This document shows, one piece after another, positions 5,163 to 41,000 of a stretch of 64,000 nt of DNA. A program made the translations under genes and the position numbers. The DNA is taken from assembly GCA_002422025.1 (NCBI GenBank), contig DISV01000004.1, positions 102,578-166,577 on the forward strand, given 5' to 3'. How positions within the stretch are numbered: position 1 is the stretch's first letter; every line of letters begins with the position of its first letter. This DNA is from Patescibacteria group bacterium UBA6201 (GTDB lineage Bacteria > Patescibacteriota > Minisyncoccia > Phycocordibacterales > UBA918). The notes under the pieces are model-generated. The model ran no database searches, was not told where the DNA came from, and was given only the letters and a program-made list of their open reading frames with translations.

Positions 5163-5528
5163 GAAAACCGCCTAATGGCGGCTTTTCTATTGCGCGAGCG
5201 AAGGGACTTGGTCACGAATATTTTCCTGCGTAAAATTTCTCGACCCCACCTCGCTTGCCTACGGCATCGCTCCGGCCTTCAAGCCCCTACACAAGCAAAG
5301 CAGTTTGCTTGTTTCGTTCGCGCAAACAAAAAAACGGCATGAAGCCGTATTTTGTTTGCGCGAGCGAAGGGACTTGAAACTTACAGTTTCGGTACACCTT
5401 TTGGCTGTTTCTGTTCACAAGCTCCAGAAATATCTCAAAAGGTCTTCAAGTCCCTACACAAAAGTCTCCCAGATTTTTGTTTCGCTCGCACAAAGTAAAA
5501 GCCCCCTAGTGGGGACTTTTATACTTTG
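5163..5528 (-). repeat. Three tandem modules (hairpin plus 20-24 nt copy of the tRNA-Asp 3' end) downstream of tRNA-Asp
   Basis: gcgcgagcgaagggacttg occurs at 5193-5211 and 5359-5377 and again as the genuine tRNA 3' end at 5528-5546; each copy is preceded by a GC hairpin; there are also inverted degenerate acceptor copies (cgttcgcgcaaac). Confidence 0.6.
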
Positions 5529-5602
5529 CGCGAGCGAAGGGACTTGAACCCTCAACCTCTGCCGTGACAGGGCAGCGCTCTAACCAGTTGAGCTACGCCC
5601 GC
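5529..5602 (-). tRNA. tRNA-Asp (anticodon GUC)
   Basis: Acceptor GCGGGCG/CGCTCGC, D-arm TAGCTCAACTGGTTAGAGC, anticodon loop CTGTCAC, T-arm GAGGGTTCAAGTCCCTT. Confidence 0.8.
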
Positions 5603-5659
5603 AATAGGCACGATTCTAGCAGAAAACTAGAAAAATGCACGATGTTTAAGAGAGGGAAT

Positions 5660-5800
5660 AAAATGTACAGTTTCTGTACAACTTTTGGATATTTGTTTCA
5701 GCACAGCCTCACAAATCCCACAAAAGGTCATCATTCCCTATCGCACACAAAATCACGCTTACGCAAAGCGCAGAGTATTCGCTTTACGCTCGATGATTTT
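5660..5800 (-). repeat. Duplicated hairpin module plus degenerate copy of the tRNA-Met 3' end
   Basis: acagtttctgtaca-cttttgg...ttcagcacagc parallels 5383-5430; ggtcatcattccctatcgcacac resembles the tRNA-Met T-arm/acceptor ggatcattccctcccgtcgacac. Confidence 0.4.
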
Positions 5801-5801
5801 G

Positions 5802-5875
5802 TGTCGACGGGAGGGAATGATCCTCCGACCTCGGCTTTATGAGTGCCGCGCTCTAACCAACTGAGCTACGTCGAC
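5802..5875 (-). tRNA. tRNA-Met-like (anticodon CAU; elongator Met or lysidine-type Ile2, not distinguishable by eye)
   Basis: Acceptor GTCGACG/CGTCGAC, D-arm TAGCTCAGTTGGTTAGAGC, anticodon loop CTCATAA, unusual T-loop ATCATTC. Confidence 0.65.
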
Positions 5876-5914
5876 GTGTCAAGAGAATAGCATTAGACCA
5901 CCCCTTGTTCAACC

Positions 5915-5957
5915 CGTAAAACAAAGAGCCACGCGATGCGCAGCTCTTTGTTTCTTG
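5915..5957 (-). terminator. Hairpin after the initiator tRNA
   Basis: aaacaaagagc-N12-gctctttgttt. Confidence 0.4.
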
Positions 5958-6028
5958 TTGCGGGGCCTGGAATTGAACCAGGGTCTGGAGGTTATGAGCC
6001 TCCCGAGGTACCACTCCTCTACCCCGCT
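5958..6028 (-). tRNA. Initiator tRNA-fMet-like (anticodon CAU)
   Basis: Acceptor AGCGGGG...CCCCGCA-A closely resembles E. coli tRNA-fMet (CGCGGGG...CCCCGCAA) with a 1:72 mismatch; anticodon loop CTCATAA; T-loop TTCAATT. Confidence 0.6.
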
Positions 6029-28359: not shown

Positions 28360-29052
28360 TTAGCTAATGTAATAACCAGGTGGCGGCCAGGTGTGTAAAA
28401 GAGTGGCAACAAGAATGTAAAACAAAAGGTGTATTGTGTAGGAATACACGAAACCGGCGCGCGCACGCAAGATAAGAAATGGAAAGACAAACGAGGAAAG
28501 AAGCGCACCAATCGTGATAATTACTCCATATGGAGTAGGCATCCCACTTACAAACACATACGCTATATGTATACTGACAAATAAAACAGCGTACGCTATC
28601 ACAACTTTTTTAAAGGACTTGAGTCCATCAACGAGTGCCTGAATAAGAATCAATATCAATATTTGTTGCAATAGAATCTCGGCTGCCTTAGGGAGAAAAT
28701 ACCATGGAGTAGCTAAAAGAATATCGGAATATGGAGCAAAAACCGGTCCAGTTAAGGTTGGCAGAAAGGAGTAGATATAGAGTATCCCCCAAACAACAAA
28801 AAATGCACCGATACTTAAAGTGGCGTACCACCACAATCTTTTCCCTAAGGGGAACCTCCGTCCATATAGGTATTCAAAATATAAAATCGCCACCACTGCC
28901 CAACCAGAGAAATAAAGAAAGATCCCTATCGGACTTGTGTTGTAGCTTGCGGCGTCACTTCCCGAAAATATAAAGTAATAGCCAATATTTGCTAATGCCC
29001 AGATAGCAGCCACAAAGATGAGACGCGCAGATATTTTTTTCCAGTCATGCAT
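28360..29052 (-). CDS. Hypothetical polytopic membrane protein (possible CPBP/Abi-like)
   Basis: About 231 aa from MHDWKK (upstream part of the ORF overlaps a tRNA); 6-7 TM segments. Confidence 0.5.
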   Translation of the reverse strand: MHDWKKISARLIFVAAIWALANIGYYFIFSGSDAASYNTSPIGIFLYFSGWAVVAILYFEYLYGRRFPLGKRLWWYATLSIGAFFVVWGILYIYSFLPTLTGPVFAPYSDILLATPWYFLPKAAEILLQQILILILIQALVDGLKSFKKVVIAYAVLFVSIHIAYVFVSGMPTPYGVIITIGALLSSFVFPFLILRARAGFVYSYTIHLLFYILVATLLHTWPPPGYYIS

Positions 29053-29140
29053 ACATCCACAGTATAGAGCATGTGTAATACTCTGTCTCCGCGAACAAAA
29101 CAGAATCACCCAACACTTGTGTGTTGGGCTGATTGTTTTG

Positions 29141-29227
29141 CGGAGGATGTGAGATTCGAACTCACGGGCAGTTTTACCCGCCGGCGGTTTAGTAAACCGC
29201 TGGTTTAAACCACTCACCCAATCCTCC
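29141..29227 (-). tRNA. Type II (long variable arm) Ser-like tRNA with apparent anticodon ACU
   Basis: Acceptor GGAGGAT/ATCCTCC, 3-bp D-stem GGT/ACC, anticodon arm GCGGT-TTACTAA-ACCGC, variable stem GGCGG/CTGCC, T-arm GTGAG-TTCGAAT-CTCAC. Confidence 0.5.
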
Positions 29228-29299
29228 ATATATTCGCTTCACTTAACTCCAACCGAGAACAGTGGCGACATTATAATCAGTTGAGGTGAAAAGTCTATA

Positions 29300-29481
29300 C
29301 ACGGGGACGGAAGGAGGGATTCAGTCACGAATAATTTTGTAATACAAAATTTTCTCGACCCCAGCTCGCTGGCCTGCGGCATCGCTCCGCTTTTCGAATC
29401 CCTCCGTAAAGCAAAGCAGTTTACTTTACTCCTTTTCCGCCCAATAAAATAACCACCCTAGTGGGTGGTATTTTATACGGG
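29300..29481 (-). repeat. tRNA-associated repeat also present at the tRNA-Asp locus, plus partial and inverted copies of the tRNA-Ser 3' end
   Basis: aaaattttctcgaccccagctcgctggcctgcggcatcgctccg matches 5234-5277 with 3 mismatches; gacggaaggagggattc is a copy of the tRNA 3' end. Confidence 0.55.
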
Positions 29482-29568
29482 CGGAAAAGGAGGGATTCGA
29501 ACCCTCGAGGGTTTTGACACCCTACCTCCTTAGCAAGGAGGCACATTCGACCACTCTGACACTTTTCC
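29482..29568 (-). tRNA. tRNA-Ser (anticodon GCU), type II
   Basis: Acceptor GGAAAAG/CTTTTCC, anticodon arm CCTCC-TTGCTAA-GGAGG, long variable arm, T-arm GAGGG-TTCGAAT-CCCTC. Confidence 0.7.
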
Positions 29569-29690
29569 AATGTGCAGTACATATTGCCCTATTTAAGGCA
29601 TCTTTTCAAATGTTTATATAACTTCTGCATCTTTTCAAAGTTTCACTTATATGCGATGCTTGAATTAGCGAAAGGGAGGAGGTGTACAAA

Positions 29691-34676: not shown

Positions 34677-34719
34677 CCCACCCTTTAGCTCAGCCCTAAT
34701 AGAGCACAGAGCTTATAAT
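34677..34719 (+). repeat. Degenerate copy of the 5' half (to the anticodon loop) of tRNA-Ile(UAU)
   Basis: ccaccctttagctcag-ccctaa-tagagcacagagcttataa versus the genuine ccgcccttagctcagttggttagagcacagagcttatac. Confidence 0.5.
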
Positions 34720-34792: not shown

Positions 34793-34866
34793 CCGCCCTT
34801 AGCTCAGTTGGTTAGAGCACAGAGCTTATACCTCTGGGGTCCTTGGTTCGAGTCCAAGAGGGCGGA
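34793..34866 (+). tRNA. tRNA-Ile (anticodon UAU)
   Basis: Acceptor CCGCCCT/AGGGCGG, D-arm TAGCTCAGTTGGTTAGAGC, anticodon arm CAGAG-CTTATAC-CTCTG, T-arm CTTGG-TTCGAGT-CCAAG. Confidence 0.7.
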
Positions 34867-34892
34867 CGGAATTTTTAATTTTCTTATACCTG

Positions 34893-34956
34893 TCCTTAGT
34901 GCGAGTCCAAGAGTGCAAACCAATTAAAAAAACCTGCCCTATGGCAGGTTTTTTTA
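34893..34956 (+). terminator. Degenerate copy of the tRNA-Ile 3' end followed by a hairpin terminator
   Basis: gtgcgagtccaagagtgcaaac resembles the tRNA T-arm/acceptor; aaaaaaacctgccctatggcaggttttttt. Confidence 0.5.
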
Positions 34957-38578: not shown

Positions 38579-38955
38579 GGGGATGACAGGCATCGACGGT
38601 TTGAATCGTTCATCCACGCAATGCCGAAATTGGAATCAATTCGTTAAAAGGTTCCATCTGTATCTGCAAACAAAGCAATACCAAGTCCGTTCTCATACGG
38701 ATTCGCCTTCGCTCGAGCGTAAGTTCGCGTAGGTGACGCTAACCTGCCCCACGTCTAATAAGGTTGTGTTAGTGGAATAGCATTGGACTCTAGATAATTG
38801 ATTTGTTCCATTAATTATCCAAATTGTTAGGAACTGCTCGTGTTGAGATTTTGCCAAATTTTTCACTTACCACGCTAAGATTTAAATCTGGCTATGCATT
38901 GTAGAAGTGTATGGACGACCATTCTCGGACGTGGATTCAATTTCCACCATCTCCA
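38579..38955 (+). ncRNA. ssrA: tmRNA (ssrA), standard one-piece
   Basis: 5' GGGGATGACAGGCATCGACGG (acceptor strand plus conserved GGC-ATCGACGG), 3' T-arm GTGGA-TTCAATT-TCCAC, acceptor CATCTCC, discriminator A; internal tag ORF starting GCAAAC and ending ...FAFARA-TAA; adjacent to smpB. Confidence 0.75.
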
Positions 38956-39159
38956 CGAGTACAAAAATCCGCTCGCACGAAAGTGCGGGCGATTTTTGTT
39001 CGTGGAGATGGTGAGAAAGCAAACTGTTTTGCTTTCGTGAAATTGAATCGGGCGGAGCGTTGTGTTTTTGCTCTTACTTAGGCAAAAACACCGCGAGCCG
39101 GGCCTGCAAGCACTTAGTATTTTAAGTGCGGAGCACGAATAAATACTTAGTGACTTGAT

Positions 39160-39184
39160 GGTTCAATTTCCACCATCTCCACCA
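39160..39184 (+). repeat. Near-perfect direct copy of the tmRNA 3' end (attachment-site-like), 205 bp downstream of ssrA
   Basis: ggttcaatttccaccatctccacca versus the tmRNA ggattcaatttccaccatctccac. Confidence 0.7.
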
Positions 39185-39323
39185 ATTCTGAAGCAAAACG
39201 AGCCTTATAAAATAAGGCTCGTTTTGTTGTATTTTGGAGAGATGTTTGGAAATTAGAACCTCTGTTTACAAACTATTATTTTTATAATATTGTTCGACTA
39301 GCTACACAGCTTGGAGACTTGAG

Positions 39324-39872: not shown

Positions 39873-39904
39873 CCGCCTTCCCTTCGGGGTGGGCGGTTTC
39901 TTTT

Positions 39905-39992
39905 TCACCAGAAATCAACAATCTTCAAGAAACTCGGACACTCCATTTCAATCAAAGAGGTTTTAACTTGTAGTAAACTGCTCCACAGAATC
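39905..39992 (+). repeat. Cassette-junction module M1 (degenerate tmRNA 3' end copy)
   Basis: cttcaagaaactcggacactccatttcaatcaaagaggttttaacttgtagtaaactgctccacagaat; about 98% identical to 40813-40897; ctcggac...tttcaat...ctccacagaat echoes the tmRNA ctcggacgtggattcaattt...ctccaccaatt. Confidence 0.6.
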
Positions 39993-40133: not shown

Positions 40134-40739
40134 ATGAGAGAAGTTTCTCTTACGCTCGACTATCTGACCATCGAACAGCTAATCGACCTTATCGACGAGC
40201 CGCATCGTTCGGTCTGCCAGCGCATTCTTGCGGACAACCGCAAACTCTTCGAAACAGCACGCGGTTCAACCCATAACCATCAGACATGGGACGGGGGTTA
40301 CATCGACCATGTCACTGACGGCATGAACTACGTGCGCCACCTCTACACGTTCGATGAGGCCTTCGGTCGACCTTTGCCATTCTCGATGTCAGATGCCCTG
40401 CTGGTCTTCTTCTTGCACGACCTCGAAAAACCTTGGCGTATCCTGGTCGATGAATCGGGGCAAGCATCAAACCGCGAGGGACTCGACACCAAAGCAACCT
40501 ACAAGGCATTTCGTGAAGAAAAGCTGGCATCGTACGGCCTCGAACTGAGCGACATGCAGTTCAACGGCTTCACGTACGTCGAAGGCGAACTTCATGACTA
40601 CACCAGCAAGCGGCGCGTCATGAACGAGCTGGCAGCTTTCGCCCACAAAGTCGACAACTGGTGCGCTCGTGGATGGTATGACTACCCCAAAGCCACTGAT
40701 GACGAGTGGACGGGCGCTGGTCGGATACGCACCACGTAA
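40134..40739 (+). CDS. Island cargo 2: HD-domain metal-dependent phosphohydrolase
   Basis: STHNHQTWDGGYIDH plus FFLHDLEKP (H..HD..D); about 55% GC versus about 44% surroundings; own promoter module and terminator. Confidence 0.6.
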   Translation: MREVSLTLDYLTIEQLIDLIDEPHRSVCQRILADNRKLFETARGSTHNHQTWDGGYIDHVTDGMNYVRHLYTFDEAFGRPLPFSMSDALLVFFLHDLEKPWRILVDESGQASNREGLDTKATYKAFREEKLASYGLELSDMQFNGFTYVEGELHDYTSKRRVMNELAAFAHKVDNWCARGWYDYPKATDDEWTGAGRIRTT

Positions 40740-40812
40740 CATCGTTACAACAACCACTGAATCTTGAATTGAAAGTCACCCTTTCGTTTCAACGATTGGG
40801 TGGTTTTCTTTT

Positions 40813-40897
40813 TCCCACAAATCCACTACCTTCAAGAAACTCGGACACTCCATTTCAATTAAAGAGGTTTTAACTTGTAGTAAACTGCTCCACAGAA
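40813..40897 (+). repeat. Cassette-junction module M2
   Basis: Near-identical to M1. Confidence 0.6.
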
Positions 40898-41000
40898 TAT
40901 AGAAATATATGGAAGATTAAGAGAGCTTACTCAGGTCTGAGTAAGCTTTCTTATTTTGTATAAAACCAGACATCCATAGTCCTCTACTGTTTTACACAGA

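Follow-up and report, generated by a model that had tools for sequence, protein, structure and literature searches.

The element behind tRNA-Ser(GCU)

The window, a stretch of 64,000 nucleotides of Patescibacteria group bacterium UBA6201 (assembly GCA_002422025.1, contig DISV01000004.1, positions 102,578 to 166,577 of the forward strand), carries a gene for tRNA-Ser(GCU) on its minus strand at 29479-29569 (ARAGORN; Rfam tRNA, 53 bits). Directly 3' to this gene the interval 29303-29478 forms a single unit when read on the minus, that is the tRNA, strand. In order, the tRNA is followed by a terminator-like hairpin, a split arm antisense to the tRNA 3' end, a folded core and then a repeat of that 3' end. 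The unit is one of a family found behind tRNA genes and the gene for transfer-messenger RNA (tmRNA), and the family is probably one of small mobile insertions.

The original prediction, made from the letters of the window, was of one core repeat of about 45 nt next to tRNA 3'-end fragments at two loci 24 kb apart, beside tRNA-Asp and tRNA-Ser. The 36-nt string CTCGACCCCANCTCGCTNGCCTNCGGCATCGCTCCG indeed occurs exactly twice on the plus strand, at 5239-5274 and 29354-29389, with none expected from 100 shuffles, and the full 43/44-nt strings as predicted are three substitutions and one indel apart. On this strand each core has ahead of it, as had been described, the 3' end of the local tRNA in reverse complement plus gtcacgaata (5190-5211 for tRNA-Asp and, diverged, 29303-29323 for tRNA-Ser), and is followed by an inverted T-loop segment (5278-5290 and 29393-29405) and the palindrome aagcaaagcagtttgctt. 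The tRNAs at both loci lie on the minus strand and so the element must be read on that strand. This orientation, the further units in the window, the antisense arms and an RNA-like covarying fold all go beyond that first account.

Reading away from the tRNA on the minus strand, the proximal repeat (DR-L) is the last ~20 nt of tRNA-Ser(GCU) itself, placed by repeat mapping at ~29479-29498 and running from T-loop position 56/57 to the discriminator and trailer. The terminator-like hairpin ACCACCC-ACUA-GGGUGGU, with A and U tracts alongside, fills 29443-29478 and was found by a terminator scan and by folding. It is specific to this unit and makes one long continuous palindrome together with the proximal copy, its trailer and the first segment of the antisense arm. 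By comparison with tRNA-Ser that first segment (GGGCGGAAAAGGAG, 29429-29442) is, at 14 of 14 positions, the complement of the acceptor 3' strand together with the discriminator and the genomic trailer, which reads CCC and not CCA. The arm is then interrupted by the conserved hairpin P2 (AAGCAAACUGCUUUGCUU; here GUAAAGUAAACUGCUUUGCUUUAC, 29406-29429), which in alignment has invariant columns and covarying outer pairs, and whose core AAG(C/U)AAACUGCUUUGCUU is nearly invariant between phyla. Past P2 the second segment of the arm (GGAGGGAUUCGAA, 29393-29405) is complementary at 13 of 13 positions to the T-loop and T-stem 3' strand of the same tRNA.

The core consists of two domains, with conserved motifs GGAGCG..GCGAG and GGGGUCG..GUGAC. 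Domain 1 (29363-29392, minus strand) has a covarying helix P4, an internal loop GGAGCG/GCGAG in which GGAGCG and GAG are invariant, and a short hairpin P5, and it contains most of the 45-nt repeat originally noticed. Domain 2 (29324-29362) runs from GGGGUCG through hairpin P7, which has ten pairs with many compensatory changes, to UUCGUGAC; helix P6, with an invariant G.U, belongs to it. It terminates in GUGAC immediately ahead of the distal repeat DR-R (UGAAUCCCUCCUUCCGUCCCC, 29303-29323), in which sequence comparison recognises the tRNA-Ser 3' end again, in decayed form. DR-R differs from DR-L by a 2-nt deletion and by substitutions, while the antisense arm is still perfect.

Antisense arms and the duplicated tRNA end

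Across the family the arms are matched to the tRNA next to them. The median duplex energy of the T arm is −16.7 kcal/mol with the cognate and −10.3 kcal/mol with non-cognate tRNA, and that of the acceptor arm −10.8 versus −6.4 kcal/mol (p ~5e-13). The arms are complementary to non-palindromic T-loops (CTTGAA against TTCAAG), have a Watson-Crick pair where the tRNA has G.U, and extend over the discriminator and the genomic trailer, not over CCA. A copy of the tRNA 5' half, as another source of the arm, is ruled out by the T-loop complement, the Watson-Crick pairs at G.U positions and the reach into the trailer.

P2 divides the antisense in most units. In some units of a Paceibacteria type the arm spans only the last ~4 nt of the tRNA and a CACAAGG-like trailer, and the distal repeat is shorter accordingly; another variant has a contiguous antisense with P2 placed after it. 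At most loci the exact repeat begins at T-loop position 56 or 57 and ends 0-2 nt past the discriminator, longer matches being tandem arrays. In long-arm units the duplication measures 18-21 nt, against ~6-10 nt in those with short arms, and it is always of the tRNA end.

Where the two copies of the tRNA end differ, 88 positions of the arm complement the proximal copy and 7 the distal one. T54/T55, immediately beyond the distal repeat, contribute some of this excess, and it is seen inside the repeat as well, for example in the Ser unit of the window and in L010, L019, L028, L034, L085, L088, L115 and L119. The distal copy in the close relative L200 carries the acceptor sequence of the tRNA-Ser found in L203 (CGTCTC) and not that of its own tRNA (CTTTTCC), and in L207 and L119 the T stem of the distal copy differs from that of the functional tmRNA. 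As a separate observation on the window, the functional tmRNA is followed by GAG, with CCA not encoded, and the distal copy ends ...CUCCACCA with CCA, as in several relatives that have no unit (38936-38959 versus 39162-39185).

A conserved fold on the tRNA strand

A consensus fold of 24 diverse copies (RNAalifold) contains 29 pairs, 14 of them with compensatory double changes, which fall in the outer pairs of P2, in helix P4 around the GGAGCG/GCGAG loop and in the ten pairs of P7. Hairpin sequences vary freely among copies. Helix P6 is invariant and includes a G.U, and one other pair is G-C in ten sequences and G.U in ten. Such wobbles are possible on the tRNA strand only, and so it is the sense strand that folds, as RNA or as single-stranded DNA (ssDNA) alike. 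From its sequence the GGAGCG/CGCGAG loop could form tandem G.A pairs.

All five window units tested have the same fold, with z-scores from −4.3 to −10.6. With DNA parameters the arms of the sense strand recreate a duplex copy of the target (z −9.7), and RNA fits the data equally well. The fold of the full read-through transcript uses both antisense-proximal and antisense-distal pairing, and in this model the acceptor 3' strand is taken up by the antisense arm and not by the tRNA's own fold. A first fold model, with the arms closing the unit by pairing to the distal repeat, was demoted, since the arm follows the functional tRNA end by the 88:7 excess and the distal repeat decays.

Linkage to tRNA genes across genomes

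Two types of unit can be told apart. Type 1 has P2 (AAGCAAACUGCUUUGCUU), GGAGCG-hairpin-GCGAG and GGGGUCG-hairpin-GUGAC, while in type 2 P2 carries a CUGGGAG loop and is followed by ACCUUUUGAG-hairpin-CCAAAAGGUGUAC-CUGUAAG. The type-2 module has been seen inserted into type-1 cores (L017, L047, L109), and so the types are modular variants of one superfamily. Species-representative genomes were scanned with the pattern AAACTGYTTTGCTT-N15-25-GGAGCG, a search biased to the type-1 P2/GGAGCG signature, and nearly all the comparison data are metagenome-assembled genomes (MAGs). The scan gave at least 116 loci, with about 100 genuine copies among the matches listed, to which the counts that follow also apply. 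These come from Elusimicrobiota (~35), Saccharibacteria (~25) and many other Patescibacteria classes (~30), with a few probably mis-binned contigs and one Sulfurovum variant.

The original prediction would have been refuted by a core found at many sites unrelated to tRNAs. Instead, of 103 copies, 67 are found no more than 120 nt downstream of a tRNA or tmRNA gene on the same strand, covering more than 30 isoacceptors, a further 11 are second units of tandem arrays, and the remainder are mostly at locus edges or behind genes missed by ARAGORN. Wrong-side controls gave no matches. A covariance model, built from 24 type-1 copies that include two from the window and with only rough E-values, recovers both of these training copies and also the tmRNA unit of the window, which is outside the training set (68 bits, E ~1e-19); on the divergent Thr unit described below it scores a weak 13 bits. 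Run over 407 kb of loci fetched for other reasons, it returned five matches, and all five adjoin a tRNA or tmRNA 3' end. The predicted single element family with a conserved core is borne out. Most tmRNA genes sampled are without a unit.

The units (130-280 bp) contain no open reading frame (ORF). Nor did all-against-all clustering of the 656 neighbour ORFs within 3.5 kb at 98 loci give a recurrent family or a recombinase cluster, the largest cluster (pilin-like) being present at seven of the 98. Around the window units the neighbours are housekeeping genes, with no integrase, phage gene or reverse transcriptase nearby. In Rfam 15 only tRNA and tmRNA reach the gathering threshold, permissive searches (E<=10) giving sub-threshold hairpin noise, and a literature search on the motif and on tRNA-linked RNAs, repeats and miniature inverted-repeat transposable elements (MITEs), including work on the Candidate Phyla Radiation (CPR) and Elusimicrobia, found nothing relevant. 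One paper on tRNA introns in Patescibacteria describes group I introns in anticodon loops.

Some related arrangements stand apart from these units. The Sulfurovum MAG variant (L018, L026, L060, L067) has the same P2 and GGAGCG motifs in a different context (AGCTTCGAAACCGAAACGGTC...), with no adjacent tRNA by ARAGORN, and may represent a separate branch of the family beyond Patescibacteria and Elusimicrobia. Mirror-image units are found on the 5' side of tRNAs (L204 at 5480-5680, L205 at 5860-5970, L077, L080 and L033), in the order distal copy of the tRNA start (12-19 nt), CUGGGAG-loop hairpin, structured core, antisense of the tRNA 5' end and intact tRNA; some share the GAGCG...GCGAG motif. 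Upstream of tRNA-Gly(CCC) in L047 (4332-4403, minus strand) an old tRNA-Gly copy is broken at anticodon-stem position 30/31 by the insertion of a composite type-1/type-2 unit that ends in GUGAC, the intact tRNA-Gly with its own 3' unit following just downstream of the disrupted copy. A similar dead tRNA-Ser copy in L046 is cut off at the T-loop by a unit. The 5'-side and anticodon-arm units suggest that the same logic is used at other tRNA loops.

Empty, filled and exchanged sites

Behind the tmRNA gene of the window (38579-38956, plus strand) lies a type-1 unit at 38957-39182, supported by the covariance model (68 bits), by its fold (z −10.6) and by comparison with empty sites. It has a terminator (38957-39000), an antisense arm in two parts (39001-39014 and 39037-39049) around P2 (39015-39036), a core (39050-39161) and DR-R (39162-39182), all on the plus strand. 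In four relatives whose SmpB is 86% identical (L209, L211, L212 and L213) the tmRNA runs directly into CAAATCTGAAGCAAAACGAGCC..., i.e. CAAATCTGAAGCAAAACGAGCCTTAT...GGAGAGATGTT. This same flank follows DR-R in the window, which gives an insertion of 226 bp including a 21-nt duplication. A closer relative, L206 (SmpB 92%), also has its tmRNA without a unit, and L207 (SmpB 90%) has a different tmRNA unit, with a core resembling that of the Thr unit of the window.

At the serine locus L203 (malic enzyme 93%) has a bare tRNA-Ser(GCU), and L200 (malic enzyme 95%) has the tRNA-Ser of the window with a type-2 unit behind it; L204 and L205 carry type-2 units as well. Unit types thus differ at the same tRNA between close relatives, by both gain and replacement.

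Further units in the window

At least six units lie in the window, behind tRNA-Thr, tRNA-Asp (two), tRNA-Met, tRNA-Ser and tmRNA, together with one remnant. The last 18-22 nt of the upstream gene recur, exactly or nearly so, 3' of tRNA-Thr(GGU), of tRNA-Asp (two, in tandem) and of tmRNA. All units other than that of tmRNA are on the minus strand. The second locus of the original prediction is a type-1 unit, Asp-b (5190-5357; 115.6 bits with the covariance model, fold z −4.3, and repeats), made up of a terminator (5327-5357), antisense (5313-5326 and 5278-5290), P2 (5291-5312), core (5212-5277) and DR-R (5190-5211). Between it and tRNA-Asp (5528-5602) sits a type-2 unit, Asp-a (5358-5527; fold z −7.3), with antisense at 5479-5491 and 5444-5457, a P2 with CUGGGAG loop at 5458-5478, the core ACCUUUUGAG..CCAAAAGGUGUAC..CUGUAAG at 5380-5443 and a middle repeat at 5358-5379. 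The Asp-a module recurs in L200, L205, L017, L047, L054 and L109.

The unit 3' of tRNA-Met (5801-5875) is also of type 2 (5650-5800), with a terminator (5747-5797), a contiguous and partly decayed antisense (5729-5748), a core (5664-5728) and a decayed DR-R (5650-5659). Behind tRNA-Thr(GGU) (2883-2956) a divergent type-1 unit (2605-2882), identified by its repeat, by its fold (z −8.8) and by a weak model match, has a terminator, antisense (2831-2841 and 2791-2801), a P2 of its own (2802-2830), a large core (CGGACGAUG..GCCGACCAAGAAAGCGAG..) and DR-R (2605-2627); this core is common to the tmRNA unit of L207. The remnant (29085-29139) is behind tRNA-Ser(ACU) and retains only a terminator hairpin and antisense CGCGGAG. 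In L200 a complete type-1 unit stands at its position.

This tRNA-Ser (29140-29227, minus strand), with the unusual anticodon ACU and flanked by units, is present only in the window and its closest relative L200, and L203, L204 and L205 lack it in the syntenic region; it may therefore have arrived together with the elements. A mechanically called ORF of 289 aa (28360-29229, minus strand), for a membrane-like protein without Pfam match, overlaps it, and so the true start of that ORF must be downstream of 29139. The tRNA-Ile(UAU) of the window is enclosed by an older, degenerate split copy of tRNA-Ile (34678-34719, 34793-34867 and 34886-34920, plus strand): ~75 nt upstream is a copy of the 5' half that stops in the anticodon loop (CTTATAAT), and ~20 nt downstream a degenerate copy of the 3' half (ATACCTGTCC...GAGTCCAAGAGTGCAAAC). 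It looks as if a complete tRNA-Ile with short flanks was inserted into the anticodon loop of a resident gene. A 103-bp direct repeat of 92% identity (39890-39991 and 40797-40898, plus strand) brackets an ORF of 201 aa (40134-40739) and is unrelated to the tRNA units.

The window has the gene content of a bacterial chromosome (LigA, SecY, FtsH, RecG, GatA, GDH, PrfB and type IV pilus genes), and its malic enzyme has homologues labelled Kaiserbacteria, Paceibacterota or Patescibacteria. A phage origin was rejected on these chromosomal housekeeping genes, on a phage database that gave tRNA matches only, and on the single chance match of the pattern in 2.9 million viral contigs.

Mobile insertions or host RNAs

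Overall the units seem best read as a tRNA-end-targeting insertion element of a new type, one not in Rfam 15 or in the literature searched. With a probability of roughly 0.6 we take them to be a family of small (130-280 nt), ORF-less and strand-specifically folded insertions at tRNA and tmRNA 3' ends that are selfish, non-autonomous and integrative. Such an element would bring along a tRNA 3' end and a terminator of its own, keeping the essential gene intact. A crossover in or near the T-loop would join the element-borne 3' end to the tRNA body, and the resident 3' end would be displaced to the far side, by an attL/attR logic, and then decay. The palindrome of proximal copy, hairpin and arm, the tracking of the functional end by the arm and the divergence of the distal copies all fit this logic. 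The original idea that the element picks up or duplicates the local tRNA end is in these terms half right: each copy is bounded by a duplicate of that end, and empty and filled sites in close relatives show insertion and turnover, but it is the proximal copy, with terminator and antisense arm, that behaves as part of the element, and the distal copy that behaves as the displaced original end.

Quite how integration might proceed is a matter of speculation. The antisense arm may fold back on the element-borne tRNA end, in sense-strand RNA or ssDNA, building or masking an attachment sequence and setting the choice of tRNA. The enzyme would act in trans, possibly a trans-encoded or host recombinase, or RecA on ssDNA taken up by transformation in these pilus- and competence-equipped bacteria, and the folded insert could bring tRNA positions 1-55 and the distal copy together as homology arms. 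A bolder proposal, which we hold tentatively and with some doubt, is a new, recombinase-free or trans-served class of mobile DNA in which the 20-27-nt antisense arm, presented on a scaffold of P2 and core, programs the target tRNA or tmRNA end by base pairing. Integration would then go through a folded single strand, RNA or ssDNA entering by natural transformation in competent, reduced-genome bacteria; the fold would sequester the element-borne tRNA end, leaving the distal copy as sole homology arm, and the insert would be carried into the tRNA gene of the recipient.

Several observations sit uneasily with a selfish insertion. Relatives with SmpB identities of 56-70% keep homologous, partly decayed tmRNA units, and Ser- and Asp-linked units stand at the same tRNAs in distant genomes (L020, L089), so that long vertical persistence with conserved structure is shown, which could mean a function for the host. 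We infer mobility from presence, absence and replacement of sequence only, no recombinase, transposase or reverse transcriptase being linked to the elements. A double-stranded circle of 130-280 bp would be an awkward recombination substrate and, if the active form is RNA, a terminator ahead of the core would argue against high expression. The T-arm antisense of L040 matches the distal copy and not the tmRNA, and in L207 and the window/L200 pair a whole T arm or a whole tRNA appears to have been replaced, not just positions 56-76, for which a simple T-loop crossover is insufficient. From these exceptions, either recombination departs at times from a clean T-loop crossover, or the tRNA and the arm co-evolve once the element is in place.

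The main rival, which we consider unlikely, is that the units are cis-acting RNAs that serve the host: a 3' trailer module of the pre-tRNA whose arm pairs with the T-arm and acceptor 3' strand in read-through transcripts. Such a module might act in quality control, in controlled inactivation or degradation, in processing of the RNase III type, or as a stronger terminator that works in both directions, with the distal copy a historical by-product or a decoy that releases the tRNA. That the arm stays complementary to the functional tRNA end, genomic trailer included, while the distal copy decays is as such a module would have it, as are the strong conservation of sequence and structure between phyla with compensatory changes, the retention of units at the same tRNAs by distant relatives, and the pairing that replaces the acceptor stem in silico. 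Yet that pairing would destroy the tRNA fold and not aid it. Units stand on some tRNAs only, tandem arrays and remnants are common, and close relatives have empty sites or another unit type at the same tRNA, a patchy and replaceable distribution that a host RNA leaves unexplained; a function for more than 30 tRNAs and tmRNA that is nevertheless dispensable in sister genomes is hard to picture.

The arm might instead be a true guide, as RNA or folded ssDNA, for a trans-encoded recombinase or nuclease, with the duplicated segment being the stretch that the guide covers. One conserved core serves more than 30 targets, no cis-encoded protein was found, and in long-arm units the duplicated segment (56/57 to 73-75) coincides with arm coverage (54 to ~76), arm and repeat shrinking together to ~6-10 nt at the tRNA end in the short-arm Paceibacteria-type units. 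The same correlation is, however, expected from simple co-inheritance, and the guide would be equally complementary to the proximal tRNA copy of its own element and so largely self-occluded. With no candidate effector, and the acquisition of a new guide unexplained, we consider this quite improbable. Classically, elements that integrate at tRNA genes are recognised by direct repeats running from the T-loop to the gene 3' end, and the repeat limits here match this; the tRNA half-copies around tRNA-Ile of the window would also suit units that are scars of integrase-mediated integration and loss of prophages or islands (left-over attL/attR), or tandem tRNA pseudogene fragments. Such scars would hardly hold the same ~100-nt covarying core between their repeats in ~100 genomes (among the matches listed) of several phyla, and the antisense arms are true T-loop complements and not tRNA copies. 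As the viral contigs gave one chance pattern match and no integrase or phage genes are nearby, scars seem very improbable indeed.

If the units are selfish insertions, much of the "intergenic" DNA next to tRNA genes would, in Patescibacteria (CPR) and Elusimicrobia, belong to one modular structured non-coding family, which would explain tRNA fragments, long palindromes and odd extra tRNAs in reduced genomes. Ends of tRNAs or whole tRNA genes would be overwritten, and tRNA annotation and phylogeny should allow for this. One scaffold at more than 30 targets with target-matched arms is a hallmark of programmable recognition, so that either a partner acting in trans or a route without a recombinase would matter to basic science and perhaps in practice. 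With the covariance model and the pairs of empty and filled sites the question becomes directly testable.

Relation to known systems

Islands and prophages that integrate at tRNA and tmRNA genes (with P4-type tyrosine integrases) and their att-flanked derivatives that lack an integrase (CIMEs, cis-mobilizable elements) resemble the units in several respects: an insertion between direct repeats that reach from a tRNA loop, in this case the T-loop, to the gene 3' end, restoration of the gene by the element-side copy (the tRNAs are intact), tandem accretion at the same tRNA and use of tmRNA as a target. In contrast to these, the units are 130-280 bp long, have no integrase, cargo or phage context, and use one core for more than 30 tRNAs, with an internal antisense of the attachment sequence and a covarying RNA-like fold. 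The earlier suggestion of a small integrative element therefore does not extend to a classical one, for which integrase and cargo are missing.

Likeness to MITEs, the other suggestion made earlier, and to REPINs and Correia-type repeats is of the same partial kind. The units are small, ORF-less, multi-copy, intergenic and hairpin-forming, are often terminators and are presumably mobilised in trans, and like MITEs they show presence/absence polymorphism among relatives, with six units and a remnant in 64 kb. Their inverted arms however are not conserved between copies and differ at each site to match the adjacent tRNA, and their target duplication is 18-21 nt and not a short fixed one of 2-10 bp, and they are not MITEs in the strict sense. 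No parent insertion sequence (IS) or RAYT was found, and the units are strictly tied to tRNA and tmRNA 3' ends.

With the bridge RNA (seekRNA) of IS110/IS1111 and the pairing of exon- and intron-binding sites (EBS-IBS) in group II introns the units have in common a structured non-coding part with target-complementary segments around a conserved hairpin, with targets that vary between relatives and a scaffold that is kept. Unlike IS110/IS1111, no DEDD recombinase or recurrent ORF lies in or beside the units, and they have a single antisense tract (20-27 nt) collinear with the tRNA end and not target and donor loops with two guide segments each. Unlike group II introns they have no intron-encoded protein and no 6-nt EBS motifs and, in contrast to group I and II introns alike, they leave the upstream tRNAs complete and the gene uninterrupted, with no Rfam intron or ribozyme match even at E<=10.

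Integron attC and CTX-phage attP sites may come close in that one strand folds into an imperfect hairpin which recreates a double-stranded copy of the target (an RNA fold explains the present data equally), with the structure of the arms conserved above their sequence and no recombinase within the small unit. No integron integrase or dif/Xer motifs were identified for the units, whose target is a tRNA gene and which have an extra conserved multi-helix core. The primer-binding sites of retroviruses and long terminal repeat (LTR) retrotransposons likewise pair, over ~18-25 nt, with the 3' end of a specific tRNA and up into the T-loop. However no reverse transcriptase was found at the units, and a primer-binding site for mature tRNA was rejected on the arm being without a complement to CCA; the complementarity enters the genomic trailer instead (CCC for Ser, AAA for Asp) and so is matched to the gene or precursor and not to the mature tRNA.

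Each of these known families fails at least one defining feature, be it the integrase, a conserved terminal inverted repeat with short target-site duplication, an adjacent recombinase, a ribozyme core or gene interruption, or the complement to CCA, and so the element is filed under none of them. We would rank it among the tRNA-targeting integrative or non-autonomous elements, without membership in a named family.

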